IMG/VR virus record: IMGVR_UViG_3300033489_000043 | Location: 1 to 31,390 of that record | Reading direction: 5' to 3' (one strand) | Length of the DNA stretch: 31,390 bases | Origin: a virus | Lineage: Duplodnaviria; Caudoviricetes | Shown: positions 5,401 through 25,611 of the stretch, one piece after another | Numbering within the stretch: the stretch's first letter is position 1 | Layout: every line of letters starts with the position of its first letter | Made by a program: the position numbers and the translations under genes | The notes under the pieces: generated by a model | Told to the model about the DNA's origin: nothing | What the model saw: the letters and a program-made list of their open reading frames with translations, nothing else | Database searches by the model: none

Positions 5401-5491
5401 GCCCAACCCGAAGTGCAAGGCGAGGCGGTTCAGCGCGGTTTAAGTTTCCTGATCGGGCAGTGCGCCGCCCGCCTTAATTTGAACGTTATGC
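5401..5491 (+). repeat. attC-like site 1
   Basis: GCCCAAC-CCGAA-GTGCAAGG...CCTTAAT-TTGAAC-GTTATGC imperfect palindrome. Confidence 0.75.
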
Positions 5492-5946
5492 CTCTCAAAT
5501 CTCCCCCGTACCGCTTCGCCGCCCATCTTTACGGTGCGGTCGTACAGAATTACGTTTGCCGTCGCCGCGAGGTTCATGCAGCTATGCGTAGGCACGTACA
5601 CCACATCTCGGCACCAAGAAAGAACGCGATCCCCGAGCGTCGCATCCTCGGCACCGAAGATGTAGAACGCCCGTTCCGGATGGGTGTAACTCGCCAAACT
5701 GCGAGCGCCAGGAACCAGATCGACGGCCACCGGTACGCAGTCGTATGGAATCACGAGCCGCAGGTCTTCGGTTTCAATTACGGGCGTCATGCGCCACTGC
5801 TTTTTTACGTCGGTCGGTACGTTCCGCATCCTGTGCCCGGACATCGCAACCATCGCGGCGCCGTAGCATCCGGCAGCGCGCATCACGCCGCCCACGTTGG
5901 CAGCGCATTTCGGGTTGTCGAGTCCAATTGCCGCAAAGCCTCTCAT
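5440..5946 (-). CDS. SpoU/TrmH-family (SPOUT) RNA methyltransferase, cassette cargo
   Basis: LDNPKCAANVGGVMR, FGAED and MNLAATANVILYD motifs; SD AGGAG. Confidence 0.85.
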   Translation of the reverse strand: MRGFAAIGLDNPKCAANVGGVMRAAGCYGAAMVAMSGHRMRNVPTDVKKQWRMTPVIETEDLRLVIPYDCVPVAVDLVPGARSLASYTHPERAFYIFGAEDATLGDRVLSWCRDVVYVPTHSCMNLAATANVILYDRTVKMGGEAVRGRFERHNVQIKAGGALPDQET

Positions 5947-6289
5947 GTCGTTTCTCCTGTGTCGCAAGGCATAACCCTGCGGTCAACCGGAGCTTCGCGA
6001 TAAGGCCGCGAAGCCCGGTTACCTTGAACGTTAGGGGTCAACCCACGGACGGCGGCACTCAGCACGTCACGGTGTAGATAGTCGGCAATTCCATCTCCGT
6101 AATACAGGCGCGTTCCGTATGGCTGCTTATCCCAAAACTCAGTTGCCTTTAGCAACCCCTCAAGGCCGTGCGCGCCCTTGAATACTCCAAGCTTCGTCAG
6201 GGTATCGGCGGCGGTGAGCGCAACCCCTACCCAGCGTTCGAGTCAGACAGCCCGACATTTGCTTCTTTATCGCTCAATGGTGTTTCCAT
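5943..6289 (-). pseudogene. Cassette gene frameshifted by 1-nt deletion in attC core
   Basis: GGAG+ATG at 6289 inside site 3 reaches TAG at codon 21; restoring one T (GTTAGGGG) joins it in frame to LLKATEFWDKQ... Confidence 0.6.
5969..6036 (+). repeat. attC-like site 2
   Basis: GCATAAC-CCTGC-GGTCAACC...GGTTACC-TTGAAC-GTTAGGG, canonical R''/L''/L'/R' layout. Confidence 0.9.
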
Positions 6290-6346
6290 GTTAATCGCTC
6301 CGTTTCAAGTTTGGTGGCCGGGCTGCTGCTCAACTCTACGTTGTGC
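6224..6346 (+). repeat. attC-like site 3 (R'' lost one A)
   Basis: CCCCTAC-CCAGC-GTTCGAGT...GCTCAAC-TCTAC-GTTGTGC. Confidence 0.8.
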
Positions 6347-6594
6347 GTCAAAGGACTGTCAGTGAATCCGAACGGCCCAAAGTTTTCTATCAAAACAATA
6401 TGCGTGTCCCAACCAATTCTTTTATCAATACCTATTCCGTACTTCTCTACACGTACCATGCTCGTGGTTACTATAGGGCCAAAGTCTTTCCATTCTTCAT
6501 TTATGTGTGCCGCAACAGCGTCGGCTGTCGCATCAATTTTGGCAACCGTAAGCATGCTTTCGGCAAGACCTCCTCGGTGCGAGCGTATTTTCAT
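6274..6594 (-). CDS. Hypothetical protein, cassette cargo
   Basis: SD GGAG; reads into site 3 (HNVELSSSP) and stops in its loop. Confidence 0.7.
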   Translation of the reverse strand: MKIRSHRGGLAESMLTVAKIDATADAVAAHINEEWKDFGPIVTTSMVRVEKYGIGIDKRIGWDTHIVLIENFGPFGFTDSPLTHNVELSSSPATKLETERLTWKHH

Positions 6595-6619
6595 ATTATT
6601 TTCACTCCGTAGTATTGAC

Positions 6620-6724
6620 GCACAACCCGGCGTTCGAGCGCACGGGCAACGGCGCGGCTTCTTTCACAGTTTCATTCATGGTTTCTCCTCGCGCCGTTAC
6701 CCGGCGCTCAACTATTCGTCAGCA
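6620..6724 (+). repeat. attC-like site 4 (R' GTC variant)
   Basis: GCACAAC-CCGGC-GTTCGAGC...GCTCAAC-TATTC-GTCAGCA. Confidence 0.8.
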
Positions 6725-6992
6725 CCCAGCCCCGCGTGTGCTCTCGTACCACGTAGCGCAGTATCCCGTCAGTTTTCATCCTGTCGGCAAACCTGCTTGC
6801 GGCCAGCGCAGCGCCCTGACGTTTCATGTGGTGGTTCGGCCAAATCGCATCCGCAATCTGGCTGGCCAGTACCGGAGATGCCCCGCGCAACGCCTCCATC
6901 ACGCGCTCACATGCATCCTGGTAGCTCACAACTTTTTCGCCCGTTTTTCTGTTCAATTTTCTCTCCGTTGATCGTGACTCACAACCATACAA
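6708..6992 (-). CDS. Hypothetical protein, possible winged helix; start uncertain
   Basis: ORF fills the space between sites 4 and 5. Confidence 0.5.
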   Translation of the reverse strand: MYGCESRSTERKLNRKTGEKVVSYQDACERVMEALRGASPVLASQIADAIWPNHHMKRQGAALAASRFADRMKTDGILRYVVREHTRGWVLTNS

Positions 6993-7039
6993 TCCAGCGG
7001 AAGCCGCAAAAGCGCGACCCCCTCATTTACACGTTAGAG
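6979..7039 (+). repeat. attC-like site 5
   Basis: TCACAAC-CATAC-AATCCAGC...CCTCATT-TACAC-GTTAGAG. Confidence 0.65.
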
Positions 7040-7119
7040 CGCATGTTCCATCGCTCACAAACTAACTTTATTTTTCGTAATTAATACACTTGTAAATTTT
7101 ACGGGTGCGGTAAAATAAA

Positions 7120-7533
7120 TCAAAAAGGTATGTCATCGTCGAAATCATCAAACGAAGCTGGTTTAGCAGGTTTCGCCTTGGCGGCATTTTCATTAACTTC
7201 GCTGTGCGAGTCTTTTGGTGTGTCTTTTTTTCCTCCCAACAAAGTCAGGTCGTTAACTCGCACATCCAGCGATACGCCTTTTCCGCCGTCTCTCTGGTCG
7301 TAGCTACGCAATGTCACCTCTCCGCTTATTCCGACGAGCTGTCCTTTTCCTAGGTACGGGAGCACCGATTCGCCGCGCTTGCCAAACATGGCACAATTAG
7401 CCCACGTAGTTTTCTCTTTATCGCCATAACCAGACTTTACGGCTACGCTGAAAGATACTATGCTATCTCCGCCAGTGGTGAAGCGCTGCTCGGCTGCGTT
7501 GCCTAGATTTCCTGTGAATGAGAATATGTTAAT
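7120..7533 (-). CDS. ssb: Single-stranded DNA-binding protein, apparent ATT start
   Basis: (I)NIFSFTGNLG N-terminus, YLGKGQLVGISG, DDFDDDIPF acidic tail. Confidence 0.9.
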   Translation of the reverse strand: MNIFSFTGNLGNAAEQRFTTGGDSIVSFSVAVKSGYGDKEKTTWANCAMFGKRGESVLPYLGKGQLVGISGEVTLRSYDQRDGGKGVSLDVRVNDLTLLGGKKDTPKDSHSEVNENAAKAKPAKPASFDDFDDDIPF

Positions 7534-9292
7534 TTTTTGTTCCTACCTTTCTGTTTTCAAATTGAATGTCGCCCGCAAATTCTGCCAAAATCCATTCAAG
7601 AGCGGTTTGCTCACTAATGTCGAATACATCCGCCAGCAGTAACAGCAATTCTTTGCGTGTCGGGCGAAGGTTACGCGCTGCGTTCGCATCTGCCACGGCT
7701 TTATCGGAAAGCACGGCAGGAGCTTTTGCCGATTCCGCAATCTGCGCATCTGCTTCGCGTTCTGCGGCAAGGATAGCCAAAGCTTCGGCCTGTGCCTTTG
7801 CGGTGGCTTTGCGCTCTTCCTCGCGCTCTATGCGCATCTTCTCCATCGCATCGGACTGCGCCTTAGCTTCCTCTTCCGCCCGGATGCGCAGACGCTCTTC
7901 TTCCAACTTTTCGGCGGCTTCCTTTTCGGCCTTGGTCTTGGCTTCGGCTTCCATGCTGGCGCGCTGGGCTTCAACGTCGGCCTTTTGCTTCTCGATCCGG
8001 CTGGTGATGGTCAGGGTGAAATCTTCCATTGGCTTTGACATCAGTGTTTGCAGGTCAGGAAATAGCGCGCTTTGACCGGCTGCATTTTCTTTACACCATG
8101 CTAACTTTTCTCGCACGTCCTTAACTGCCTCGGCGGCGGCAAATTTCCCATCACGAAGCGCGGTATCTACTGCATCTTGCATGGCCGACAGCTTTTTCAG
8201 CCCCTTCATTGCACCTGGAAAGTCTGGGTGTTGAGCAACTAGGCGGATCGGCTTAATCTCGGCTTCCAGCGCGGAGAAGTATTCATTGAAGTCCGCGCGA
8301 GCTTTCAGGACAATTGCCTCTTTTCTGGATTCCTTTTCACTTTTCACCAGTTTATCCAGCATCAAGCGCTTGTCGGCAAGCTGTTTCTTGATGTGGTCGA
8401 GCGTGCGCACCACTTCATCCACGGTGGACATCTGCGCAAGTACGCTGGCCTTTGTCGCTTCCAGGTTGCCTTCGGCTTCTTTGCAGAATTTCACCGTTGA
8501 TTCAGCATCTGCAAAATCCTGATCCGTGGTCAATTCTGTTTTGATATTGGCGATGAACGTGGTGGCCGCTTCCCTGAATTCCGCAAGGTTGCTGGCTGTC
8601 ACCATGCCAGTTGCCTGCACGAATACGGCTGGAAGGGCTTTGATGGCTTCGGCTTGCGGCGCTTCCTTTTGTTGCATGATCTCGCCTGCGGCCAGTTTGC
8701 GCTTGTATTCTTCAACATCCTTTTTGAATTGAATCCAGCCGGCGCCGATGCGTTTGCGCAGTTCAGGATTCGGGTAGTACCAGCAATGCAACTCTTCGAT
8801 CAGATTTCCATCTTTATCCCACTTGGACGCCATGAACAAGCATTTCTCGCCTTCGCATACCTCTGCTTGGTGTTCCATTTGAACCTGATGCTCTTCGGGT
8901 AGGTCGGCTCCGGTAACGCCCTCGCGCGACAAAACTTCGCGCAGTTCTTCGTTGAGCGATTTGTGCTCAAACCAGACAGACTGGCCGTAGGTTATACCGT
9001 CGAAGCTGGCTGAATATTCATCGCGCGCGCCAGTCACAGGTGAAAGCTCATCGCCGATGATCTCTTCGGCCAACGGGCGGGCCATCGACTCGAAGCGGTG
9101 TCCATCATTGAATCGGCGCTGAGTTGCGTCGTCAACCTCTTGAATGATGCCGGTTGCGCGCTCTTTGATAAACTGGCTGCGCGCCTTGTGTTTGCTGATT
9201 CCGAGCATGGTTGGAGCATCGCTGGCGTTGAATGCGGTGGCGCGGTGGGTGTGCCATTCCGGGCTTCCTTGTACGAGGTTCAGGATTTTCAT
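7529..9292 (-). CDS. YqaJ/lambda-Exo-like exonuclease with long coiled-coil C-terminus
   Basis: MKILNLVQGSPEWH, ASFDG, FEHKS, HQVQMEHQ motifs; ATGA overlap with bet. Confidence 0.88.
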   Translation of the reverse strand: MKILNLVQGSPEWHTHRATAFNASDAPTMLGISKHKARSQFIKERATGIIQEVDDATQRRFNDGHRFESMARPLAEEIIGDELSPVTGARDEYSASFDGITYGQSVWFEHKSLNEELREVLSREGVTGADLPEEHQVQMEHQAEVCEGEKCLFMASKWDKDGNLIEELHCWYYPNPELRKRIGAGWIQFKKDVEEYKRKLAAGEIMQQKEAPQAEAIKALPAVFVQATGMVTASNLAEFREAATTFIANIKTELTTDQDFADAESTVKFCKEAEGNLEATKASVLAQMSTVDEVVRTLDHIKKQLADKRLMLDKLVKSEKESRKEAIVLKARADFNEYFSALEAEIKPIRLVAQHPDFPGAMKGLKKLSAMQDAVDTALRDGKFAAAEAVKDVREKLAWCKENAAGQSALFPDLQTLMSKPMEDFTLTITSRIEKQKADVEAQRASMEAEAKTKAEKEAAEKLEEERLRIRAEEEAKAQSDAMEKMRIEREEERKATAKAQAEALAILAAEREADAQIAESAKAPAVLSDKAVADANAARNLRPTRKELLLLLADVFDISEQTALEWILAEFAGDIQFENRKVGTKN

Positions 9293-10122
9293 TGTTGGAC
9301 CCCCTTCTCCCATGATTGAATTTCGTCCAAAACTTCTGCCGGTAAAATGTACTTCGCCGAAAGGAAGTCGATCAGGTTCTGTGCCGTCTCTTCCTGATGC
9401 TCGATCAGGCTCTTCGCGCTGAATTTTGTCACCACGCCGTCCGCATCCAATTTGTCGGTCGAATACTTTTTCAGGTCGGAGAGCGTCATAGTTTTGCGCT
9501 CTGGCTTTTCTGGGATTACTTTGGCGGTTCCTTCGATTGTAGTAAATCCTCCATCCGCCTCGATTATGCGCTCTGCTTCGTCTTGATCGAAGATACCGGC
9601 GAATCCGAAAGCAAGGCGCGCAGCTTGAATCAGCGTCTTGTGCCTGTGCATCCGCTTTGGGTGAGTATCCCAAGGGGTAGTAAAATTCACAGTGCGCATC
9701 ACTTCATCAAGAAACTCGCGAACCACAATAGGCTTCGATCTGTCTTTGCGGGTGATGATGCAATCAATCCATTCATGCACAGTCTTTCCTTTGTGCTGAG
9801 TAGTTTCTGGGGAATACACAAATTCAAGTCCATCCATTTGCGGGTTTTCGTTGATAATGCGCGCCCATCCATCCACCGACACAACAGGAACAATCGCGCC
9901 CTTATCTGGGTATGCGTATATTTCCTTGGTGAACGGGTTGAGACCGTACTGATCTGCGACGACAAGCAGCATGGTCATTTGCTCATTTGAAATCTGCATT
10001 CCCTCTTTTTGCTTAAATGCCGTAGCTTTCAGCGTGTCAAGAAATTTTGCTTCATCGACGCTGTATTTCTCGGCGAAACGATGCACTAGAGATTGATTTT
10101 GTGTTGCAAGTGCTGTAGTCAT
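9289..10122 (-). CDS. bet: Phage ssDNA-annealing recombinase (Bet/RecT family)
   Basis: ADQYGLNPFTKEIYA, VSVDGWARIIN, PWDTHPKRMHRHKTLIQAARLAFGF; SD AGGAGG. Confidence 0.92.
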   Translation of the reverse strand: MTTALATQNQSLVHRFAEKYSVDEAKFLDTLKATAFKQKEGMQISNEQMTMLLVVADQYGLNPFTKEIYAYPDKGAIVPVVSVDGWARIINENPQMDGLEFVYSPETTQHKGKTVHEWIDCIITRKDRSKPIVVREFLDEVMRTVNFTTPWDTHPKRMHRHKTLIQAARLAFGFAGIFDQDEAERIIEADGGFTTIEGTAKVIPEKPERKTMTLSDLKKYSTDKLDADGVVTKFSAKSLIEHQEETAQNLIDFLSAKYILPAEVLDEIQSWEKGVQQ

Positions 10123-10131
10123 AAATCCTCC

Positions 10132-10281
10132 TTAAATATGTTTCCATGTGCGGCGATTTGCTATGTCGCTAATGGTTGTTTGAGATACCAAAAACCGGCT
10201 TGCTAATTCTTGCTGCTCTGCGCCGTGCGACAATCTCATGCGAATGGCGATAACCTGATGCGCGGATTGTGAACGGTTCAA
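10132..10281 (-). pseudogene. Orphan C-terminal HTH of an HNH homing endonuclease
   Basis: Hand translation QVIAIRMRLSHGAEQQELASRFLVSQTTISDIANRRTWKHI*; no nuclease domain upstream. Confidence 0.55.
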
Positions 10282-10283
10282 AT

Positions 10284-10610
10284 TTATTCATTTTCAACGT
10301 ACTTCGCAAATGATACAGGTTTGCCACCCCCAATTTGTACAGTGCGTTTGTCCACGTCAACGGTTATGATTTCATACTCGTTGTCGTATATCTTGCAAGA
10401 AATCCCAAAACCTGTAGTTTCCGCCCAATATTCACTCGGTATCATCTGGCAGAAAATAATCCTCGTTAGGTACTGAAAATCATGCCACCGACTTTCCCCG
10501 CGTTTAAGTGCCAAACGTAAAGTTTCAGGCAGTTCGCTCCCGTTCCAATGCGTGTAAAGAACAACCTGTTCTTCGCCTCTCTTTACAACGATGTTTGCTC
10601 TATCTCCCAT
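10284..10610 (-). CDS. Phage hypothetical protein
   Basis: SD AAGGAG; MGDRANIVV...LYTHWNG. Confidence 0.7.
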   Translation of the reverse strand: MGDRANIVVKRGEEQVVLYTHWNGSELPETLRLALKRGESRWHDFQYLTRIIFCQMIPSEYWAETTGFGISCKIYDNEYEIITVDVDKRTVQIGGGKPVSFAKYVENE

Positions 10611-10649
10611 TTCCACACTCCTTTTCACTTGATTAATTTGCAGTTCACC

Positions 10650-11150: not shown

Positions 11151-11417
11151 TCATTTGAATCCTGACAACTTGCGTAAACCTAATACCAGAGCCACTTTGC
11201 TCCAGCTCCCGCTCCCGCTCCAGCTCCTGCTCCTGCTCCCGCTCCAGCTCCTGCTCCCGCTCCCGCTCCCGCTCCCGCTCCTGCTCCAGCTCCTGCTCCA
11301 GCTCCCGCTCCTGCTCCTGCTCCTGCTCCAGCTCCCGCTCCTGCTCCAGCTCCTGCTCCTGCTCCAGCTCCCGCTCCTGCTCCTGCTCCATAACTCGCGC
11401 ATAATAACGGCGTTCAT
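11151..11417 (-). CDS. Ser-Arg/Gly/Trp low-complexity protein
   Basis: ATG immediately after upstream TAA; SRSRSGSW repeats. Confidence 0.55.
   Translation of the reverse strand: MNAVIMRELWSRSRSGSWSRSRSWSRSGSWSRSRSRSGSWSRSWSRSGSGSGSGSRSWSGSRSRSWSGSGSWSKVALVLGLRKLSGFK
11199..11390. repeat. Hexamer tandem repeat GCTCC(A/C/T), about 32 units
   Basis: Direct reading. Confidence 0.95.
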
Positions 11418-11774: not shown

Positions 11775-11926
11775 AATAGTTAATAGCTTACTCAGGGCGG
11801 CTTACCCGCCAGCATCGCTTCTAAGGCGCTTAGCAAACCACCCGATCAACTCGACATCGTTTAAGACGCGGTTATCTTAGCGGTCGCTTGTTGCTGTTAT
11901 CAGCGATGCGCTGCTGATGGTTAGAC

Positions 11927-11999
11927 ATCATACAGATATTTTTGATTGTGTCAAGGGGTTCGTGAACATCTTGACATAATCTGTCATTGCGATAATAAT
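11927..11999. promoter_or_regulatory. Back-to-back divergent sigma70 promoters with operator-like palindrome
   Basis: Leftward TTGACA-16-TATGAT (11954-11927); rightward TTGACA-17-AATAAT (11971-11999) containing TGACA-N5-TGTCA; gene orientation switches here. Confidence 0.7.
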
Positions 12000-12287: not shown

Positions 12288-12572
12288 ATGGTGTATTACA
12301 CACAACTGGAAAAACTGAAAGCGCGCAAGCCGCACAGATGCACAAGTTGCGGAGAAGCTATCGCTATAGGAGAAGCATACTACAGATGGCGATCCTATGA
12401 ATGTGGAGATGCAGGAACCCACAAAATGCATCCTGAATGTTATGAGATGCACGATGCCGATGCAGTTGGTGGGGAGTGGGAGTACTCGCCATATAGCCAC
12501 GAGCGTCCGGAAGTGACGCACAGCGTGCAAGGTGAGGCGTTGCCAATCTCGAAAGGACAAACGAAGCTATGA
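12288..12572 (+). CDS. Zinc-binding hypothetical protein
   Basis: ARKPHRCTSCG...HPEC; stops within attC loop. Confidence 0.7.
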   Translation: MVYYTQLEKLKARKPHRCTSCGEAIAIGEAYYRWRSYECGDAGTHKMHPECYEMHDADAVGGEWEYSPYSHERPEVTHSVQGEALPISKGQTKL

Positions 12573-12640
12573 ACGACCAGACACCAATGCCAGCGAAAGA
12601 ATTCACTTCAGGGCAGTCCCGCTTGACCGTAGGGTTAGCC
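12518..12640 (-). repeat. attC-like site 6 (R' GCT variant)
   Basis: Minus: GGCTAAC-CCTAC-GGTCAAGC...CCTCACC-TTGCAC-GCTGTGC. Confidence 0.7.
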
Positions 12641-12901
12641 GCTGACTTGCGGACAAGATCGGGGCAGGAAGCATCTGTGATTGAGCAAATACGTGAGTAT
12701 GGCGGATTCTCGATATTCTGGGCAACCGAAACACAGCGGAGAGCGTGCGCCATAGAGCGACTGCAAAAGCGCGGAGAGATTAGCAGAATTGGCGGAAGCT
12801 ATCCATTTTGTAAATATGAACTGGCGCACAACGTTCAAATTGAGGCGCCGCCCGCTTCTGGGCGGTCGCTCTCGAATGCAGGGTTGTGCGTCAAAACGTA
12901 A
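12569..12901 (+). CDS. Hypothetical cassette protein starting inside site 6 and reading through site 7
   Basis: AAAGGA + ATGA overlap in loop; C-terminus HNVQIEAPP...SNAGLCVKT. Confidence 0.65.
   Translation: MNDQTPMPAKEFTSGQSRLTVGLAADLRTRSGQEASVIEQIREYGGFSIFWATETQRRACAIERLQKRGEISRIGGSYPFCKYELAHNVQIEAPPASGRSLSNAGLCVKT
12826..12889 (-). repeat. attC-like site 7
   Basis: Minus: GCACAAC-CCTGC-ATTCGAGA...CCTCAAT-TTGAAC-GTTGTGC. Confidence 0.9.
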
Positions 12902-12915
12902 CTACGGAGATAAAA

Positions 12916-13200
12916 ATGGAAATCAACAAAATAGCAGCACGGCAATATGACTGGGTGGAGCGCATGGGCTGGCATAACAAAACCGTGCTTGAGGCGCTGG
13001 CGCTGATCGCAAGCGAAGTAGGCGAAGCGGTGAACGAGTGCCGAGGTGAAGCGCCATCCGAGGATTTTCCAACGGAGCTTGCGGACATCATCTTGCGGAC
13101 AGTTGATCTTGCCCACTGGCAGGGCATCGACATTGCGGACGTGATCGCTACAAAGATGGCGAGCAACGAGCGGAACGGAACGCGGGGCAGGCGCATTTGA
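12916..13200 (+). CDS. MazG-like NTP pyrophosphohydrolase, cassette cargo
   Basis: LIASEVGEAVNE and ELADIILR (ExxE...ExxD) motifs; SD GGAG. Confidence 0.8.
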   Translation: MEINKIAARQYDWVERMGWHNKTVLEALALIASEVGEAVNECRGEAPSEDFPTELADIILRTVDLAHWQGIDIADVIATKMASNERNGTRGRRI

Positions 13201-13201
13201 C

Positions 13202-13264
13202 GCACAACGTAGAGTTAACCGGCTCCGCGCTTTTGCGGAGTCCGGGTTCAACGCCGGGTTGGGC
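13202..13264 (-). repeat. attC-like site 8
   Basis: Minus: GCCCAAC-CCGGC-GTTGAACC...GGTTAAC-TCTAC-GTTGTGC. Confidence 0.88.
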
Positions 13265-13286
13265 GGCATGTGGAGCCAGCGGTGGG

Positions 13287-13730
13287 CTAATCGTGCTTGA
13301 CGACGCGACCGACTATGAAAACAGAGACAAGACCAATGACCGTCGTACCGCCAATAACTCCTGCAACAGCAGGAGAACCCATAGCCAGCGCCAACATTGA
13401 GGCTCCAAGTGCGGTGAGGCCGATTACGAAACCGAAAAACTGGCCTCTTTTTACTTCGGCCTCCATTGCGCGCAAGGCTGCAAATTCGATTTCTTGTTGG
13501 TGCTTCGTATCTGACTCGGCCATTATCAAGATGCGTTCAGCGGCACCCTTGACGAGATGTTCATACCCCTCAAGAACTGAAGGGGGTGGCATGGGGCCTG
13601 AGAAAGTGGATTGCTGGAACTGTGCAACAGACTTGCTATTGCCATTTGCGCCGGAAGCAGTAACCGCGCCGTTGGCGGTGCTAACGGCGTTCTTAGGCTG
13701 CTTTGGTTTTTGTGATTGGGGTCGAGCCAT
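13287..13730 (-). CDS. DUF2335-like membrane protein
   Basis: FSGPMPPPSVLEGYE...GAAERILIMAE...RGQ followed by two TM helices. Confidence 0.8.
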   Translation of the reverse strand: MARPQSQKPKQPKNAVSTANGAVTASGANGNSKSVAQFQQSTFSGPMPPPSVLEGYEHLVKGAAERILIMAESDTKHQQEIEFAALRAMEAEVKRGQFFGFVIGLTALGASMLALAMGSPAVAGVIGGTTVIGLVSVFIVGRVVKHD

Positions 13731-13902
13731 TATCAGCGAACGAACCGCAAGCGCGGCTAACAGACTCGCCGACATGGGTGAAATGACTAGCCATGCGTTC
13801 AGCACCGCTACGGCGCGGTGCCAATTGACGCAGATTGCGCGCAGGAGCCAAGTCCATCACGCTCCCTGCGCCACGAAGAAAATTCTTTGTTTTCGTATTC
13901 AT
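13693..13902 (-). CDS. Small hypothetical partner of DUF2335 gene
   Basis: FLRGAGSVMDLAP; overlaps start of DUF2335 gene. Confidence 0.6.
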   Translation of the reverse strand: MNTKTKNFLRGAGSVMDLAPARNLRQLAPRRSGAERMASHFTHVGESVSRACGSFADNGSTPITKTKAA

Positions 13903-14802
13903 GGCCGAATGATAGCCGCAAGCGGCTTGACAATCAAGTCGTTAAGCGTAACGGGAACGTCACATTCCCGGCACGTGAGGTTCTTGACGCCCAACGTATA
14001 GTAGCCGGCAAAAACGCCGGATATGCTGGTAATACCGGACAAACACGGCGTTTACCAATACGCATGACCATTGCTAGTTTGATTGCAAATCAAACATTGT
14101 GCATCGAAGCCTGACTGTGCGCACAGCGCCCGGATGGAAATAGCATAGAAAACAGTGGTCATCCGTGTTGGTAAGGGCAATGTCTGGTAGGTACTAGCTA
14201 CCAGACACCCAACAGCGTGAAGTGTGCTACCGGAGACCGTTAGTAAGCTAGACGAAAGCGCGAAAGGTCGCAATGCACACTAGCTCGGTATAATAGAGCT
14301 GCCAACACTAATTTTGCTGGTGAATGCGCATGCTGAGATAATCCCAGCAAAATGTCGATTGAGCTTGCGACAAAAAAGGCGGCGAGCCTTAAATGAATAA
14401 GTTTCCGTGTTTCTTGCGCGATGGTAACGAAATGACCATGCCGGATATCGTAACCGGCAAATTTTCCGCTTGCTATTGGTTTGCGGAAGCTTTAAAGTTA
14501 TATTTGTTCGCGGGTTAACCGCCGCGACAACCAATGTCGAGGTGCCAATGTATCAAATCAGTTTCTTCAGTGATGGGCAGTCGGCTTTTAGCCAATGCCT
14601 CGTATCGGCTAGACTCCTGTTGGGTTGGTTGCCCAGCGCCCATCACAGAGGATATTGATATGACGATAAATACCCCAGAATACCTCCGCTGCTACGCAGT
14701 TGCGAAATCCATCCCATCACGCAAGAATAAGCGCCCGGCGATACTGTTTTGGTTTAAGTGCGCAAAAAAGATGTTGAAGGCGTCCAAAGATAGGGGTGAT
14801 AA

Positions 14803-15555
14803 GTGGCGCGCATAAGAACCATAAAGCCTGAGTTCTTCACTAGCTCAGACATAGTTTCTCTCACGCCTCTTTCACGGCTTTTTTACATCGCTTTATGGTG
14901 TGAATCAGATCGTGAGGGAAGGTTAGATTGGAAAACAAAAACATTCAAGCTCCGATATTTTCCAGGCGATGAATGCGATATTGAAAAGATGGCGTCCGAG
15001 TTGATCAACGCAGGTTTGGTTGTTTTGTATTCGGTGGACGGGCAGCAATATGCAGAAATTCCATCCTTCACTTCACATCAAGTTATCAACAATCGGGAGT
15101 CCGAAAGCAATAGGCCATGCCGAAGTTTTGACGCGTCCACCACGCGTGAAAGTGGCGTGAAAGCGGAAGGGAAGGAAGGAAGGAAGGGAAGGGAAGGGAA
15201 GGGAAGGGAAGGGCGCGATGAATCGGCGCCAGAAATTACCTTTGACCAATTCTTAACAGAATGTGAAAGTACCGGAGAGTTACCAATCCCTGAGGACGAT
15301 CCTGTTTTTGAATGGTCACAAACGATAAACCTGCCGCAAGCGGTTTTATTTGTCGGTTGGGAAGCGTTCAAGAGGCGCGAATGGCTGGACGCCAAAAAGA
15401 GACCTAAAAAATACAGGGACTGGCGGGCGGTGTTTCGGAACTACTGCAAAAACCCAGATTGGTTGAACGTGTGGAGCATCAACAAAGACGGCGAATACTA
15501 CCTGACGGCCAAAGGTAAGCAGTTGGAGTCAGAAATAAAAGCGAGGAAAGAATGA
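14803..15555 (+). CDS. Phage replication initiator (lambda O analog)
   Basis: MARIRTIKPEFF N-terminus, central low-complexity linker, KKYRDWRAVFRN C-terminus; directly upstream of helicase. Confidence 0.8.
   Translation: MARIRTIKPEFFTSSDIVSLTPLSRLFYIALWCESDREGRLDWKTKTFKLRYFPGDECDIEKMASELINAGLVVLYSVDGQQYAEIPSFTSHQVINNRESESNRPCRSFDASTTRESGVKAEGKEGRKGREGKGREGRDESAPEITFDQFLTECESTGELPIPEDDPVFEWSQTINLPQAVLFVGWEAFKRREWLDAKKRPKKYRDWRAVFRNYCKNPDWLNVWSINKDGEYYLTAKGKQLESEIKARKE
15165..15213 (+). repeat. (GGAA/GGGAA)n polypurine tract, candidate origin element
   Basis: Direct reading; inside initiator linker where lambdoid origins lie. Confidence 0.7.
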
Positions 15556-20143: not shown

Positions 20144-20178
20144 GCCGATATTATGGCTGACGAGTTAGGCGGTTAGAA

Positions 20179-20415: not shown

Positions 20416-20431
20416 AATTGAAATGGTTTTT

Positions 20432-20518
20432 TATTGGCGCTGAGTTGAGGGGCGAGGAATGAGCGAAGCGAATGACGAGTCCAGCCGCGCAGCGGCGACC
20501 TCGAACGCCGTGTTAGAA
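20432..20518 (-). repeat. attC-like site 9 (R' degenerate)
   Basis: Minus: TTCTAAC-ACGGC-GTTCGAGG...CCTCAAC-TCAGC-GCCAATA. Confidence 0.65.
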
Positions 20519-20529
20519 CGGCGGGCGTT

Positions 20530-20811
20530 ATGGAACGAAGAATAGTTTGCGCGGCAATGCGGAACAGTGCGGGTGATATTGTGACCGGAGCGCGTCATTA
20601 TGACGGAATCATGCGACAGCACATAGAACGGCTGCGCGAGTCGCACGGGCATGATGTGTGGTCGAAGAGCGACATTGAGCAAGGTTTCATTGACCAGCGT
20701 GGAGAGTTTCTGACACGCGAAGAGGCGCACAAGGTTGCAGCCGAAGCTGGGCAGATCATCCGGCGCTGCGGAGGCGATGATGTGAGGCTGTTCAGCGAGA
20801 ACCTGTACTGA
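20530..20811 (+). CDS. Phage hypothetical protein, cassette cargo
   Basis: IVCAA...GARH...QGFIDQRGEFLTREEA...LFSENLY. Confidence 0.75.
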   Translation: MERRIVCAAMRNSAGDIVTGARHYDGIMRQHIERLRESHGHDVWSKSDIEQGFIDQRGEFLTREEAHKVAAEAGQIIRRCGGDDVRLFSENLY

Positions 20812-20814
20812 GGT

Positions 20815-20878
20815 GTCGAACGTAGAGTTGAGGGGGCGCGCCCGCTTTTGGCGCGTCCCTTGCAACGATGGGTTAGCC
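20815..20878 (-). repeat. attC-like site 10
   Basis: Minus: GGCTAAC-CCATC-GTTGCAAG...CCTCAAC-TCTAC-GTTCGAC. Confidence 0.85.
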
Positions 20879-20925
20879 CCCGCTTTTGCTACAGCGCGAA
20901 AAGTTTTGTGTTAGAATAAAGCCAT

Positions 20926-20975
20926 CTGAGAGTAGGCTAGTCTGGTCAAGTCACCCGGTTTGGAACCGGGATAAT
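20926..20975 (+). pseudogene. 5' portion of disrupted tRNA-Pro(TGG)
   Basis: Acceptor CTGAGAG, D arm, anticodon arm CCCGG-TTTGGAA-CCGGG; T arm missing; extended -10 TGtTAGAAT upstream. Confidence 0.85.
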
Positions 20976-20977
20976 TT

Positions 20978-21055
20978 CAGTGTGTAATGTCAATCTGGTA
21001 GACGGCCTGCTTTGGAAGCAGGAGGCTGAAGGTTCAAATCCTTCCACACTGACCA
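20978..21055 (+). tRNA. tRNA-Pro(TGG)
   Basis: CAGTGTG/CACACTG acceptor, CCTGC-TTTGGAA-GCAGG, GAAGG-TTCAAAT-CCTTC, encoded CCA. Confidence 0.92.
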
Positions 21056-21100
21056 ATTTATGTGTTATGATGTTTGGAACTTAACTACATAGTTCCAATT

Positions 21101-21445
21101 ATGACAAGCGACGAGAAGCGCAAATACCACAGGGATTATCACGCAAAAAGAAGTCCAGATAAAAAGCAACACAAGATGAAATTACAGGCCGACCGCGCCC
21201 TTAAAAACATCTTGGCGTTACGGGATTATAAATCCGAGCATGGATGCTCTGTATGCGGAGAAAAAGACCCGATAGTTTTAGAGTTTGACCATCTTGATAT
21301 GGATGCTAAAAGTTTTAGTGTTGGGAATTCCGCAAGATTGGGAATGTCATTAGAAAACCTAATGAAAGAAGTGTCGAAGTGTGAAGTTTTATGCGCGAAC
21401 TGCCATAAAAAGAAAACAGCAAAACAAATGAATTGGCGGGTATAA
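21101..21445 (+). CDS. HNH homing endonuclease
   Basis: CSVCG...LEFDH...KCEVLCANCH; AT-rich. Confidence 0.88.
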   Translation: MTSDEKRKYHRDYHAKRSPDKKQHKMKLQADRALKNILALRDYKSEHGCSVCGEKDPIVLEFDHLDMDAKSFSVGNSARLGMSLENLMKEVSKCEVLCANCHKKKTAKQMNWRV

Positions 21446-21464
21446 AATCCTACCTCTCAGACCA
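21445..21464 (+). pseudogene. 3' remnant of disrupted tRNA-Pro
   Basis: AAATCCTAC-CTCTCAG-ACCA; CTCTCAG pairs 7/7 with CTGAGAG at 20926. Confidence 0.85.
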
Positions 21465-21503
21465 TCAAATAACCTGTACGTACTTTAAGACGAAAGGTGT
21501 CAA

Positions 21504-21692
21504 ATGAAAATCGCAACTGAAAAACCATACCGTATTTTTGCCGAAGTTTTGGAGCAAGGCGCGCTCGATCAATTCGAGAGCGCGATGCAACAGCCGTTTG
21601 CAGTGCGTGGCGCACTGATGCCTGACTCTCACTCTGGATACACTCTACCAATCGGGGCGGTGATCGCCACGGATGGCGTGATACTGCATTAA
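21504..21692 (+). pseudogene. rtcB: Orphan N-terminal fragment of RtcB
   Basis: KPYRIFAE...GALMPDSHSGYTLPIGAVIA aligns with N-terminus of 22228 gene. Confidence 0.9.
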
Positions 21693-21696
21693 CCTG

Positions 21697-21725
21697 TTGA
21701 GTTATGATAACGGGTGCGGTATAAT
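21697..21725 (+). promoter_or_regulatory. Sigma70-like promoter at start of HNH insertion
   Basis: TTGAGT-17-TATAAT. Confidence 0.6.
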
Positions 21726-21754
21726 TACGCATTGTTTTTATCGGTAACTTTCAA

Positions 21755-22234
21755 ATGGCGTTATCAACCAAGGAAATAAAAGCCCGTTATTTCAAGAAAA
21801 AGTACGACGAAGCACCAGAAATAGAATGCCTTTGCGGGTGTGGCGAAAAGATTAAATCTATTGATGCGTATGGCAGGCCGAAAGGTTTTGTTAGTGGGCA
21901 TAATGGGCGAAAATACGCGGACAAGTATGGGCATAAAAAAGAATGGGTTAAAAGAAACCGTGACTGGGTAAATTCGCGTAAACAGCGATTATCCAGAGAG
22001 CGTAAATTGTTTTTAATGACGCTGAAAAATTCAGTCTGTAAAAATTGCGGACTTGAGTACGACGGTAAAAATGGATCGGCATTCCATTTCCACCACACAA
22101 ACCCAGAAAATAAAGAGGTTGAGATCGGAAGCAATTTAAACAATATCTCGCTTGATGCCCTGATTGGCGAGGTTGAAAAATGCGAATTGCTTTGCTCTAA
22201 CTGTCACTCAATTAAACATCAAGGAGAATGGTAA
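21755..22234 (+). CDS. HNH homing endonuclease
   Basis: CLCGCG...SGHN, CKNCG...FHFHH...KCELLCSNCH. Confidence 0.88.
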   Translation: MALSTKEIKARYFKKKYDEAPEIECLCGCGEKIKSIDAYGRPKGFVSGHNGRKYADKYGHKKEWVKRNRDWVNSRKQRLSRERKLFLMTLKNSVCKNCGLEYDGKNGSAFHFHHTNPENKEVEIGSNLNNISLDALIGEVEKCELLCSNCHSIKHQGEW

Positions 22235-23397
22235 TGTACAAAGGAAAATATGTTGAATCGCTTGGTATGACTGACTTGCAACATCTTGATTCTCTCGGAA
22301 AGCCTTACAAAATATTTGCTGAGATTATTGAGGAAGCCGCGATACTTCAATTCATTGACTACATGGATCAGGATTGGGTCGTTAAAGGCGCTTTGATGCC
22401 GGACGTGCATTCCGGCTATTCGCTGCCGATTGGTGCTGTAATCGCTTGCGATGGGGTTATAAGCCCACAAGCGGTTGGCTACGACATTGGTTGCGGAATG
22501 TGCGCGTTGCCAACGACCTTTGAAGCGGGCGAAGTGAAGGAAAAGGCAAAGGCAATTTTCGACGGCATTTACAAGGCCGTCCCGGTCGGGTTTTCGCACA
22601 ACCAGAGAAACACCGAATGGGATTACAGCGTCCTTCCGCGCACTGCCAAGATGCAGGAGATTTTCGACAAGAACGGGCTGCGCCAGATCGGCAGCTTGGG
22701 CGGTGGTAATCACTTCGCCGAAGTGGGAGCGGACGAAACTGGGAAAGTTTGGGTTGTGATCCATTCCGGCTCACGCGGCATCGGACACGCGGCGGCATCG
22801 CACTACATGCGATTGGCGAGCGGTGACGGGAAAGCGCGGGAAGGGCATTTTGGTTTTGACGTGAACGAAACGAACGGGGTTGACTACATCGCCGACTTAG
22901 GGTTTTGCCTTGAATTGGCGCTTGAGAATCGGCGCGAAATCATGCGCCGTATTGAGGCTGTGCTTTCGGCTAACTGCACCGGGTTTGGCGATTGGGATGC
23001 GCTGATAAACCGCAACCATAACCACGCCGAACTGAAAGACGGGCTATGGATTCACCGCAAGGGCGCTACACACGCCGAATCCGGGATGATGGGCGTGATA
23101 CCGGGCAACATGCGGGACGGCAGCTTTATCGTGCGCGGCAAAGGCAACCCATATGCGTTGTGGTCAAGCTCACACGGCGCAGGCCGTGTGCTTGGGCGCA
23201 AGGAAGCGCAGCGCACTTTGAACATGGAGCAATTCACCGAAGCCATGACCGGAGTGGTTGCGCTGGTGACAGCCGAAACACTCGACGAATCGCCATTTGC
23301 TTATAAGTCAATTTATGATATAATCGAATCTCAAGTAAGGGATGGCATGATCGAAAAGGTTTGCCACATAAGGCCGATTATCAACATAAAAGGATAG
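22228..23397 (+). CDS. rtcB: RtcB RNA-splicing/repair ligase
   Basis: MPDVH, GYDIGCG, GSLGGGNHF, HSGSRG, HNH, HRKGAT, IPGNM, SHGAGR, DESPFAYK, NIKG. Confidence 0.96.
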   Translation: MVMYKGKYVESLGMTDLQHLDSLGKPYKIFAEIIEEAAILQFIDYMDQDWVVKGALMPDVHSGYSLPIGAVIACDGVISPQAVGYDIGCGMCALPTTFEAGEVKEKAKAIFDGIYKAVPVGFSHNQRNTEWDYSVLPRTAKMQEIFDKNGLRQIGSLGGGNHFAEVGADETGKVWVVIHSGSRGIGHAAASHYMRLASGDGKAREGHFGFDVNETNGVDYIADLGFCLELALENRREIMRRIEAVLSANCTGFGDWDALINRNHNHAELKDGLWIHRKGATHAESGMMGVIPGNMRDGSFIVRGKGNPYALWSSSHGAGRVLGRKEAQRTLNMEQFTEAMTGVVALVTAETLDESPFAYKSIYDIIESQVRDGMIEKVCHIRPIINIKG

Positions 23398-23399
23398 CA

Positions 23400-23957
23400 A
23401 TGGAAACGAGCTTTGAGTATGCCGCTGGCTTTTTTGATGGGGAGGGATGCGTAGGAATTTATCCCGGATCATATAAAGGAAAGCTTGCCAGATATACCCT
23501 TAGAACTCAGTTGGCGCAAAACAAAAACTCATTAACTGATGAGCTTTTTAAGTGGTTTTCCGATACGTTTGGCGGCGGTATATCAACGCAAATTTCGCTA
23601 TCTGGAAACGAAAAATTGAACTGGCAGCTTAATGGAGACAATGCAAATAATTTTTTGCGAATAATTTCCCCGCATCTTGTCTTAAAAAAACCGCAAGCAG
23701 ATATTGCAATATCTTGGCAAACGAAAAGACCAAAACAAATCCACTTGCCAAGCGGTCAATTCAGATTTGAGACTGCGCCAGATTTAGTTTTTGATGCTAA
23801 GGTTTGCGATTTAATGAAAAGGTGCAAGCGAGAAATCCTTGAGGATGTAATAGCAGATGATGAAATGCTGCTGACGTATCAAAGCGTGATGGCGCAGCAA
23901 ACCGACATGGTTGAGGTTGTTGCGCACGTCAAGCCACTGCTGAACATCAAGGGATGA
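23400..23957 (+). CDS. LAGLIDADG endonuclease fused to displaced RtcB C-terminus
   Basis: YAAGFFDGEG, ISPHLVLKKPQA; tail YQSVMAQQTDMVEVVAHVKPLLNIKG. Confidence 0.88.
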   Translation: METSFEYAAGFFDGEGCVGIYPGSYKGKLARYTLRTQLAQNKNSLTDELFKWFSDTFGGGISTQISLSGNEKLNWQLNGDNANNFLRIISPHLVLKKPQADIAISWQTKRPKQIHLPSGQFRFETAPDLVFDAKVCDLMKRCKREILEDVIADDEMLLTYQSVMAQQTDMVEVVAHVKPLLNIKG

Positions 23958-23963
23958 ACGCGG

Positions 23964-24027
23964 GGCTAACGTTCAAATTGAGGCGCGGCGCGCTGTTGCG
24001 CCGTCGCTCTCGAATGCAGGGTTAGGC
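23964..24027 (-). repeat. attC-like site 11
   Basis: Minus: GCCTAAC-CCTGC-ATTCGAGA...CCTCAAT-TTGAAC-GTTAGCC; arms near-identical to site 7. Confidence 0.9.
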
Positions 24028-24048
24028 TTTTGAAAAGGAGAATGAAAA

Positions 24049-24336
24049 ATGAGCGACAACGACAAAGTGATTTGCCCGAACTGCGTGCATGAATTCGTGG
24101 CCGTGTCCGTGAACATACAGGCCAAGTTGACGATGAAAAATCAGAAGGTAGTTACTTTAACATCGTTCGACTTACCACCGAGGCTAATAACTTCAATAAA
24201 CGCATTTGACGATGCAATGGTAAAAGCGATAGATACTGTTATCGAATCTGGTGTGCATCGTGGAATGATAGTAGGGATGCTTCACGCATACGCACATGAG
24301 CAGACTAGAAGGATGGTTGAAGATGGGTACGCCTAA
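24049..24336 (+). CDS. Hypothetical protein, cassette cargo
   Basis: SD AAGGAG; stop is the TAA of GCCTAAC. Confidence 0.7.
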   Translation: MSDNDKVICPNCVHEFVAVSVNIQAKLTMKNQKVVTLTSFDLPPRLITSINAFDDAMVKAIDTVIESGVHRGMIVGMLHAYAHEQTRRMVEDGYA

Positions 24337-24417
24337 CGTAGAGTTAACCGGCTCCGGGCAGCCTTATCGCCCGGAGTCCAGCGACCGAAGGGAGCGAGGT
24401 TGAGCGCCATGTTATGC
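24331..24417 (-). repeat. attC-like site 12
   Basis: Minus: GCATAAC-ATGGC-GCTCAACC...GGTTAAC-TCTAC-GTTAGGC. Confidence 0.88.
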
Positions 24418-24722
24418 CACGCAGCCACGGGAGAGAGCGAATGCCCTGCTACATAGAGCCGATGAGGGACGGCGGCACGATGTTTCTGTGCGGCGCCTTT
24501 GGGCCGCATTGCGCGGATTGCGGAGCCGTGGGAGACAACCTGTGCGATTACCCGGTAGGTGATGGCAATACATGCGACCGCAATATTTGCGACCGCCACG
24601 CCCATGAGGTGGCACCGAACATGCACTACTGCGACCAGCACTACGCGGAGTGGCGAGCGTTCCGCGATGCAGGCGGGGTGAAATCAGAGCTTGAGAACGT
24701 GGTGCCGTTTCATGGGGCATAA
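24414..24722 (+). CDS. Cys/His-rich zinc-binding hypothetical protein, cassette cargo
   Basis: CADC, LCDYP, TCDRNIC, YCDQH; stop is the TAA of GCATAAC. Confidence 0.7.
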   Translation: MPRSHGRERMPCYIEPMRDGGTMFLCGAFGPHCADCGAVGDNLCDYPVGDGNTCDRNICDRHAHEVAPNMHYCDQHYAEWRAFRDAGGVKSELENVVPFHGA

Positions 24723-24782
24723 CGGACAGGTTCAGGGGCTGGCGGGCAGTTTCGCCAGTCCCGCTGGAACCGAGAGTTAGAG
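24717..24782 (-). repeat. attC-like site 13
   Basis: Minus: CTCTAAC-TCTCG-GTTCCAGC...CCTGAAC-CTGTCC-GTTATGC. Confidence 0.88.
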
Positions 24783-24962
24783 GGGTGATTTGATGTGGAA
24801 CAGTTCCCACAAACCGGGGTGCATTTTGGATTTTCCGGCTTCCCAATCCTGCCATGTGCGCAGTGCTGAATGCACCAAGCTGGCCGCCGTTTTCTGCGTG
24901 AGGCCGGCAGCTTTACGGGCTGCGCAAACCTCACTGTTTGACGGGATTAATCCGGGTTGCAT
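24777..24962 (-). CDS. XRE-family HTH protein
   Basis: ARKAAGLTQKTAA...RTWQDWEAG; stop in CTCTAAC. Confidence 0.8.
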   Translation of the reverse strand: MQPGLIPSNSEVCAARKAAGLTQKTAASLVHSALRTWQDWEAGKSKMHPGLWELFHIKSPL

Positions 24963-25195
24963 GGTTCGAGTTTCAGCCCAGCCCGATAGCCGCGCCCAAG
25001 TGCCGCGCGCATCGGGTCGGTGGATGATTCCGCAGACAGCCACATATCATGCTCCGCCTGCGTTCCGAATTGGTCGCCATGGTGGGCGCGGCGCAGGCCG
25101 CGCATGTGCCCGGCCCACCACTCGGATTCGACCGGATCGTCTGTCAGCCGGCGTAGGGTGTCAGCCCTACGCATCAGGGTTGCGAAATTGCTCAT
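24947..25195 (-). CDS. Hypothetical protein
   Basis: ATGA-coupled within inverted operon. Confidence 0.6.
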   Translation of the reverse strand: MSNFATLMRRADTLRRLTDDPVESEWWAGHMRGLRRAHHGDQFGTQAEHDMWLSAESSTDPMRAALGRGYRAGLKLEPCNPD

Positions 25196-25416
25196 GTTTG
25201 GTCGAAAGCAACGGCCTCACCAGCATCGTACCCGTCGATGTAGTCAAGCACGTCTGCCGGGAGTCGGCGAAAATGAATGTCGAGGCTATCCAGGACACAG
25301 ACCAGAGGCGTGCAAATAGCCAGGTTAGACGGGTAACGCTCATTGGGGAGCATTTCGGCTTTCATACCGGCCAGGTAGCCGGCAAAACGAGCGGGGGACA
25401 TTGTGGACATTTTCAA
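25192..25416 (-). CDS. Hypothetical protein
   Basis: SD GAGGAG; upstream promoter TTGCGT-16-TATAAT near 25475-25502. Confidence 0.55.
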   Translation of the reverse strand: MKMSTMSPARFAGYLAGMKAEMLPNERYPSNLAICTPLVCVLDSLDIHFRRLPADVLDYIDGYDAGEAVAFDQT

Positions 25417-25555
25417 CTCCTCACCAGGCTACCGGCTGGCGTCGGCGGGAAGCGTTGCGCATCCCATGAACTGAATTATACGCGGATTTCGCGTAAACGC
25501 AAGAACATTTTTGAATTATTTTTCGGATGGCGTGGCGTGGCGTGACGGCCAAGCC

Positions 25556-25611
25556 CTCTAACGCAAAAGTCACCGGCGCCGAAGGCGTCCGCGTGGACTG
25601 ACGGGTTATGC
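25556..25611 (-). repeat. attC-like site 14
   Basis: Minus: GCATAAC-CCGTC-AGTCCACG...GGTGACT-TTTGC-GTTAGAG. Confidence 0.85.

Follow-up and report, generated by a model that had tools for sequence, protein, structure and literature searches.

Which way round do cassette genes stand to their attC recombination sites when an array is carried by a phage, and what explains this orientation? The question is raised by a linear viral contig (IMG/VR record IMGVR_UViG_3300033489_000043, Caudoviricetes), whose full length of 31,390 bases, about 60% of the genome by estimate, was analysed here and is called the window. It contains 14 attC sites in three arrays, of five (5401–7039), three (12518–13264) and six sites (20432–25611). 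An earlier note on this DNA had proposed that the sites are reversed relative to the genes, that their polarity follows transcription and that each gene travels with the attC upstream of it. We found reversal in most cassettes of the window and at most sites of other viral loci, and conclude with a probability of about 0.75 that the window carries three arrays of true attC sites, whose genes are opposite to the bacterial layout and whose cassettes are probably mobilized by an integron integrase (IntI) borrowed from the host.

Sites were numbered S1 to S15 across the window, S9 being an attI-like site (Table 1). An attC site carries an unpaired extra base at position 16 and another at 23 or 24, with a 5-bp spacer after the R'' box (Nivina 2016, PMC5027507). 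A detector built on this geometry (extra base at 16, A at 23 or 24, 5-bp spacer after R'') found seven window sites at a score of at least 21, compared with one in 30 shuffles of the window; as a control of polarity, it was run on 16 bacterial loci carrying the integron integrase gene (intI), where the top strand lay opposite intI at each of the 70 sites detected. A covariance model, trained on 60 bacterial attC sites of up to 76 bases, each taken on the strand opposite its intI, recovered 12 of the 14 sites at E ≤ 0.004 (20–69 bits), nine of them above 29 bits. The top strand proved to be the plus strand throughout the left array and the minus strand in the two arrays to the right, as had been read earlier from the geometry. 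None of these 12 calls fell on the opposite strand, where the best scores at any site were 8.2 and 6.6 bits, and the two damaged sites gave weak scores on the strand of their own arrays (S10 with 11 bits and S3 with 7.6 bits). Fourteen attC-like sites of plus polarity on the left and minus polarity on the right are thereby confirmed.

The extrahelical bases, sought on both strands, agreed with the strand called: position 16 was a C in 11 sites and a G in one, with two read by eye, and an extrahelical A stood at 23 or 24 in 10 of the 14. The boxes showed AAC in R'' and GTT in R', with 5 bp after R'' and 5–6 bp before R', and were imperfect in S3, S4, S6 and S10. A TIGR02249 search of all 31,390 bases of this incomplete record gave no match to an integron integrase gene, and the three arrays agree with the definition of a CALIN (clustered attC sites that lack an integron integrase), namely at least two attC sites without intI (Cury 2016, PMC4889954).

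The orientation of the genes was likewise read directly from the window. Ten of the 12 bounded cassettes carry their genes on the attC bottom strand; only two (13265–13995 and 24783–25561) show the classical layout of a top-strand gene followed by its own attC. Reversal thus holds for ten cassettes and fails for two, one of which is common to normally oriented arrays. Complementary R boxes of at least 7 nt flank the gene in eight of the 12 (one re-registered by eye).

Reversed arrays in related phages and the mobile unit

Viral loci were fetched with three patterns built on the window sites, together with four annotated phage records from Qi 2023, which gave 85 loci with 222 unique sites. The bacterial control used one of the three patterns on bacterial genomes (31 of 64 parts of the set) and gave at least 292 unique sites. 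Both sets were treated with the same detector, the gene on the R'' side being counted as owner of the attC; L-numbers denote loci compared in this survey. The owner gene was reversed at 176 viral sites, normal at 19 and uncalled at 27, whereas it was normal at 214 of the 292 bacterial sites, reversed at 17 and uncalled at 61. When loci sharing a site were merged, 47 of 55 viral but 6 of 109 bacterial groups were mostly reversed, and two of the five normal viral groups were identical to bacterial loci. Polarity across the phage contigs surveyed is therefore not random, which bears out the proposal of a phage-adapted class of cassettes.

Genes were called with a simple amino-acid model of our own, which reproduced most window genes, though with some starts wrongly placed and with Bet and the exonuclease fused into one. 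R boxes complementary across the gene (at least 7 of 8) were present in 41% of 181 viral cassettes compared with 1.6% of random pairs. Called genes started within an attC in 37 of 238 viral cases, and genes read on into the next attC in 120 of 233 viral versus 12 of 166 bacterial cases.

The bacterial set also contained one locus with attC of both polarities in one short stretch (L143, 5997–8100) and arrays repeating one cassette of about 180–200 bases, each copy with the same attC (L111, L142 and L157). Of 12 listed proteins from reversed cassettes in bacterial arrays, the 11 remaining after exclusion of an integrase were scanned against PHROGs and only a Phd-like antitoxin matched; a phage origin of these cassettes, or traffic in both directions, is unsupported by this single match.

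Some phages encode the integrase themselves. A search with one phage IntI protein as query returned 67 viral loci, a sample biased towards likeness to that query. Three phage IntI proteins reached 464–478 bits on TIGR02249 (cut-off 265), and the three IntI loci checked contained tail, lysis or separate phage-integrase genes. In the viral IntI loci, 101 sites upstream of intI had the top strand opposite intI, which is the general arrangement of integrons, and one had it on the same strand; the gene at these 101 was reversed in 89 cases, uncalled in 11, intI itself in one and normal in none. Array geometry was examined in 38 of the 67 loci, of which 31 had upstream attC sites, and in 27 of these 31 a matching R box closes off the last gene, 47–149 bases before intI. 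A motif shared before the phage intI, mostly present after the closing R box, differs from the host attI, and the host-type motif followed only 1 of 36 arrays of IntI phages. A quick tree of 67 IntI proteins placed 38 viral ones in a group without bacterial members (Shimodaira–Hasegawa-like approximate likelihood ratio support 88); reversed arrays also flank three viral IntI proteins outside this group. Among IntI phages, one carries a reverse transcriptase gene (phrog_1423; L243, 18976–19974). Virus Rctr41k (L405, KX853513) has an IntI-like gene annotated as xerD at 4680–5678, with no attC match in the 11.6 kb of its sequence analysed.

Exchange between near-identical phages indicated which attC moves with a gene. 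In 21 of 25 cases, alignment ends near an attC fell at bottom-strand offsets 4–10, which corresponds to the AAC of R', and shared blocks ran from the AAC of the upstream site to the AAC of the downstream site. The mobile unit therefore consists of the interior of the upstream attC plus the gene, as the earlier note had suggested, although the signal in diverged pairs is weak (see below). Crossover at R' is also visible in the window itself, where a cassette with a DUF2335 gene joins its surroundings at the R boxes.

An attI-like site and the probable route of insertion

The bacterial arrays end in a non-hairpin motif, which in 10 of 11 hand-picked loci lies 47–240 bases before the called intI start. 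A matrix derived from the 11 hand-picked intI-adjacent sites gave 25.7 bits for S9, compared with 11.5 bits for the next window site and 18.2 bits for the best of 50 shuffles. By this likeness of sequence, the middle array carries an attI at its R'' end. The strict motif occurred after 14 of 52 viral arrays and before 3 of 53; in bacteria the values were 15 of 65 and 1 of 57. As to a Pc promoter that would read from attI into the array, no minus-strand consensus match was found between 14000 and 14900, in a scan that weak promoters would escape.

The DUF2335 cassette, the first at this attI, has an ordinary orientation. Its gene together with S8 recurs with 89–92% DNA identity in 4 of 13 metagenome loci compared (L313, L314, L315 and L322), and the homology blocks end at or just past the GTT of R'. 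In L313 and L322 it belongs to arrays of five and four sites with all genes forward; short loci of this kind show no intI and are bacterial-type rather than proven bacterial. The homology to all-forward arrays fixes the polarity of S8, which S6 and S7 share while their genes face the other way. A 155-base sequencing-run contig matches the attI (13989–14029) with four differences, other sequence replacing the DUF2335 cassette, and may stem from a related attI present in the same sample.

This attI and the relatives with their own IntI, both missed in the earlier account of polarity, explain the reversed layout. IntI would bind the folded bottom strand, here the strand of messenger RNA (mRNA) sense, and cut between AA and C in R'. 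In gene sense the mobile unit would comprise C, the interior of the upstream attC, GTTRRRY, the gene and RYYYAA, and insertion would take place at attI, where the phage transcript has its distal end. IntI would work by its usual chemistry, only the gene within the cassette being turned round. Phage promoters would enter the array at the end away from attI and read towards attI and, in the relatives, on into intI, so that only reversed cassettes could be expressed without a promoter of their own, while ordinary host cassettes would land antisense, like DUF2335. Since polarity is a property of the cassette, arrays would follow transcription as a consequence. Use of the host IntI is probable because the attI is of host type. 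All three arrays have imperfect promoter-proximal sites (S4–S5, S6 and S10), which would be expected of the oldest sites. We infer the source of the enzyme, present-day activity and expression of the window arrays from these relations.

Several observations weigh against this account. The window lacks intI in a record about 60% complete, so that the enzyme source is a matter of inference, and an attI occurs in only one of its three arrays (not in the left and right ones). Of the 14 sites, five show damage or imperfections (S3, S4, S5, S6 and S10). Of the 25 breakpoints, four lie off R', one half of them at offset 21 and the other half at the R'' end, and the 21 at R' stem from about five phage pairs. 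Of 17 diverged homologous cassette pairs lying in different contexts, just 11 were more alike in the upstream than in the downstream attC (mean similarity 0.67 versus 0.60), and in the S6 cassette of the window the downstream attC is more similar than the upstream one. The survey samples mainly one, betaproteobacterial attC family, because the search patterns came from the window's own sites, and its gene calls rest on a single in-house model. Orientation was normal in phage TJE1, in L069 and L023 and, by gene map, in the IntI locus L226. At the outer ends, no complement of the S1 R'' box that could close the array was found within 1.6 kb after S1, and neither an attI nor a closing R box was found beyond S15.

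Whether polarity follows transcription or replication was considered from the gene map. The early region is lambda-like: a leftward unit contains Bet, RecE-like and SSB genes, and a rightward unit contains the replication initiator, DnaB, methylases, NinB and NinG followed by terminase genes. Six promoter matches were found in the region versus 4.3 expected, a count that is not significant, and the back-to-back pair in Table 1 comprises the two best. Skew minima lie at 11858 and 11952, the latter for purine skew. In lambda-like phages the origin lies within the initiator gene; on this precedent and on short repeats at 15131–15163 we assumed it there. The polarity flip, said earlier to occur at the divergent promoter and not at the origin, is bracketed only between 7039 and 12518; the promoter matches and the skew minima lie inside this bracket and the initiator gene outside, while the distinction depends on one array and on an assumed origin. 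That polarity follows transcription stands as an observation, but it largely restates the need of reversed cassettes to lie in sense to the phage promoters that read them, and only the middle array separates it from replication. Marker searches of other viral loci revealed no second array between promoter and initiator, and 4 of 80 loci with initiator relatives had attC sites, none so placed.

Reversal might alternatively have been selected by replication, with the bottom strand on the lagging-strand template, genes running with the fork and the middle array as a tolerated exception. A lagging-template position raises attC excision (Loot 2017, PMC5371416), and with the assumed origin the bottom strand would occupy it at 11 of the 14 window sites and at 7 of 7 sites in the four loci with initiator relatives. 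These seven outside sites, however, fit transcription equally well, and S6–S8 and the attI would lie on the leading template yet keep the polarity of the transcript. Furthermore, attI followed by intI in one operon accounts for reversal without replication, which makes selection by replication unlikely.

The same cassettes and mechanism could instead be served by an integrase from a co-infecting IntI phage or from the unsequenced part of the genome. IntI phages with reversed arrays are common, and about 40% of the genome lies outside the record. S9, however, matches the host-type attI, whereas most IntI phages carry another motif, and, since both contig ends fall within virion genes, the portion outside the record probably corresponds to the head-tail module. 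We regard this source of the enzyme as quite improbable. A similarly poor prospect, and the poorer of the two, is that the arrays are mostly relics now shuffled by homologous recombination of the phage RecE/Bet type at repeated attC sites. The RecE-like and Bet genes (7529–10122), the damaged sites, the two arrays without attI and the 3' end of the S6 cassette, which departs from its copy in L077 a few bases before AAC with removal of the stop codon, would fit such a history; yet breakpoints between close relatives cluster at AAC and not along the repeats, the junctions of the DUF2335 cassette fall exactly at R boxes and nine sites retain the high scores given above. That the hairpins are terminators or chance palindromes, or the strand call wrong, can practically be dismissed: either strand folds, and the top strand is lower in energy at some sites, but the shuffles, the intI-oriented sites and the covariance model all back the strand call, S8 recurs as the attC behind the DUF2335 gene in all-forward arrays, and identical code returned the normal orientation in bacteria.

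Contents of the cassettes

Table 1. Features of the window. Bits are covariance-model scores; E, expectation value; ORF, open reading frame; RBS, ribosome-binding site; HTH, helix-turn-helix.
Feature	Position	Strand	Remarks
attC S1	5401..5491	top +	20 bits; final site of left array along the transcript
Reversed cassette gene, SpoU-family methyltransferase	5488..5946	-	PF00588, E 3e-12; 9-nt R-box complement; stop TAA in S1 R' box
attC S2	5969..6036	top +	54.5 bits
Reversed cassette ORF	6030..6285	-	starts within S3; in-frame stop at damaged R'' box (two frames read separately)
attC S3	~6222-6346	top +	7.6 bits; long, R'' damaged (one base short); RBS and ATG in loop
Reversed cassette gene phrog_8785	6274..6594	-	E 2e-22; 12-nt R-box complement; continues into S3
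attC S4	6620..6724	top +	23.3 bits; R' = GTC; RBS and ATG of 25-amino-acid ORF in loop
Reversed cassette ORF	6708..6956	-	gene model; no family match
attC S5	6979..7039	top +	41.4 bits; promoter-proximal end of left array
Back-to-back sigma-70-like promoter matches	11927..11999	11954 minus, 11971 plus	11/12 consensus bases each
attC S6	12518..12640	top -	21.7 bits; R' imperfect; ATG at 12569 in loop
Reversed cassette gene	12569..12901	+	N-terminus encoded by S6; reads through S7
attC S7	12826..12889	top -	49.8 bits
Reversed cassette gene, MazG-like pyrophosphatase	12916..13200	+	phrog_3301, E 2e-18; 13-nt R-box complement
attC S8	13202..13264	top -	69.1 bits; belongs to DUF2335 cassette
Normal cassette gene DUF2335	13287..13805	-	PF10097, E 4e-14; cassette nearest attI; antisense to phage transcripts
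attI-like site S9, betaproteobacterial type	13989..14030	-	promoter-distal end of middle array
Replication initiator gene	14803..15555	+	phrog_16167, E 6e-36; DnaB adjoining; short repeats 15131-15163; assumed origin location
attC S10	~20432-20518	top -	11 bits; R' degenerate; promoter-proximal end of right array
Reversed cassette gene phrog_839	20530..20811	+	E 2e-28
attC S11	20815..20878	top -	39.8 bits
Reversed 3.1-kb cassette	20879..23963	+	tRNA-Pro, HNH genes, RtcB RNA ligase in pieces, endonuclease gene; 9-nt complementary end R boxes
attC S12	23964..24027	top -	61.1 bits
Reversed cassette gene phrog_15190	24049..24336	+	stop TAA in S13 R' box; 7-nt complement
attC S13	24331..24417	top -	29.8 bits
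Reversed cassette gene phrog_13747	24441..24722	+	stop TAA in S14 R' box; 8-nt complement
attC S14	24717..24782	top -	36.1 bits
Normal three-ORF cassette	24777..25416	-	last is HTH gene, stop in S14 R''; 9-nt complement
attC S15	25556..25611	top -	42.7 bits; last site of right array

In the left array, the methyltransferase gene has a 75% copy in L063, there between other attC sites, and the letters of 6030–6285 are identical in contigs from two studies. No match of this array to annotated phages was obtained by blastn. Three 27-base repeats (5294–5383) lie within the ORF following S1 (5129–5374). Further to the right, a run of the 6-base repeat GCTCCN at 11198–11390, where contigs break, lies within an ORF on the minus strand whose product abounds in Ser, Arg, Gly and Trp.

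The gene of the S6 cassette matches L077 with 81% identity from position 12561, within S6. At its other end (12816–12832) it differs from the L077 copy (4277–4646) in the R box and has lost the stop codon, so that the ORF runs through S7; the switch of sequence sits a few bases before AAC. Relatives of the MazG-like gene, compared in loci L277–L310, are reversed cassettes in L278, L281, L284 and L290 and plain phage genes without attC elsewhere, e.g. in L277 (93% identical protein).

In the 3.1-kb cassette, a tRNA-Pro(TGG) gene (20978–21055) is preceded by a second tRNA-like stretch and accompanied by two HNH genes; one tRNA was the sole match in an Rfam search of the window. The rtcB gene is divided, with a separate N-terminal piece at 21504–21692 and an rtcB-like tail on the endonuclease ORF at 23400–23957, as if invaded by homing endonucleases. 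The normal three-ORF cassette has a perfect -10 box upstream when read by eye, which is absent from the list of the promoter scan. A search for its source gave no viral relative, and the 401 genomes searched contained two partial matches, both away from any attC; its origin from a bacterial integron is thus unsupported.

None of 13 cassette proteins matched a defence system in PADLOC. Among the sequencing runs listed as containing this DNA there was no RNA run. A search of sequencing-run contigs for excision joints listed four joints, which were not taken as excision because their short sides measure 22–27 letters and join similar attC copies. Another such contig leaves the phage sequence at 26014–26043 into a 28-base end, which we take to resemble a CRISPR (clustered regularly interspaced short palindromic repeats) repeat and which suggests that a host in that sample has a spacer directed at this phage.

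Relation to known integrons

Clusters of attC sites without intI have been described in phages, and six phage sites were tested with IntI1 (Qi 2023, PMC9892861). The five that integrated, including both of phage PH101, gave correct junctions with a bottom-strand frequency above that of the top strand. We located the oligonucleotides of that study, taking the forward ones as bottom strands in agreement with the aadA7 control and the bulge geometry. The bottom strand of PH101 attC1 and attC2 lies on the strand of all annotated neighbour genes, so that both sites are reversed. The MW202573 array, whose sites belong to the same family as S7 and S12, is reversed as well, whereas the TJE1 sites are in normal orientation. 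The sites of P12002L were missed by detector and model; judged by motif, attC1 is reversed, and the genes flanking attC2 are convergent. The earlier suggestion that the recombinogenic bottom strand is the mRNA-like strand thus agrees with the geometry of the window and with the reported preference of the likewise reversed PH101 sites. In contrast to our analysis, the text of Qi 2023 does not mention a reversal of genes against attC and calls PH101 typical, while its figures and annotation may show the orientation; nor does that text describe a host-type attI in a phage lacking intI or a phage clade of IntI.

Chromosomal integrons of betaproteobacteria (Gallionellaceae, Rhodocyclaceae, Methylophilaceae) share the attC family of the window (L123, 5471–5534, resembles S7 and S12), the attI motif and its position relative to attC polarity, and the DUF2335 cassette is of their layout. 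Their genes, however, lie on the top strand (214 of 292) with intI facing away from them, whereas the phage genes lie on the bottom strand and the window has no intI. Inverted-integrase integrons, e.g. of Treponema, resemble the IntI phages in that intI is co-oriented with the cassette genes (Cury 2016, PMC4889954); there, however, intI is flipped onto the attC strand, whereas the IntI phages keep intI opposite the top strand and have the genes within the cassettes flipped. The regular and the inverted-integrase layouts are the only ones named in the accessible text of that paper and of bioRxiv 10.1101/2025.02.12.637893, and that of bioRxiv 10.1101/2022.09.11.507474 makes no mention of a reversed one.

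Single cassettes of opposite orientation are known in bacterial arrays, namely those with their own promoter and toxin-antitoxin cassettes. They share with the phage cassettes a gene on the bottom strand of its attC (one Phd-like case) but are a minority in bacteria (17 of 292), whereas in phage arrays this orientation is the rule and the cassettes are promoterless and read from outside. In open-licence PubMed Central and bioRxiv we found no paper on systematic reversal, on a phage IntI group or on host-type attI in phages lacking the integrase. While phage attC clusters and their activity are already in print (Qi 2023, PMC9892861), the reversed layout, the host-type attI and the link to phage IntI appear new by this search and make these arrays a real, new variant of the integron system.

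Cassette orientation has been treated as fixed by the strand selectivity of attC for reading from Pc (Nivina 2016, PMC5027507). A large phage pool of opposite layout shows orientation to be set when a cassette is made and by the place of the promoter, not by the chemistry of recombination. The origin of cassettes is 'largely unknown' (Loot 2017, PMC5371416), and a phage gene occurring both free and as a reversed cassette, together with genes that start within attC, offers a direct handle on it. PH101 is a cultured phage with reversed sites, for which assays already exist.

Tentatively, and with odds somewhat below even, one can speculate that these phages maintain mirror-image integrons: an IntI lineage of phages that has an attI of its own, and integrase-less phages, the present one among them, that dock on the IntI of the host through a host-type attI, the reversal insulating the two gene pools and phage genes being made into new cassettes within the arrays. 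The last point is suggested by the MazG-like gene found with and without attC. Bacterial integrons store anti-phage systems (Kieffer, bioRxiv 10.1101/2024.07.02.601719; Darracq, bioRxiv 10.1101/2024.07.02.601686), and a phage using the host integrase would benefit if its layout placed incoming host cassettes antisense. If so, host defence cassettes would be silent in the phage, and phage cassettes would be silent in the host.

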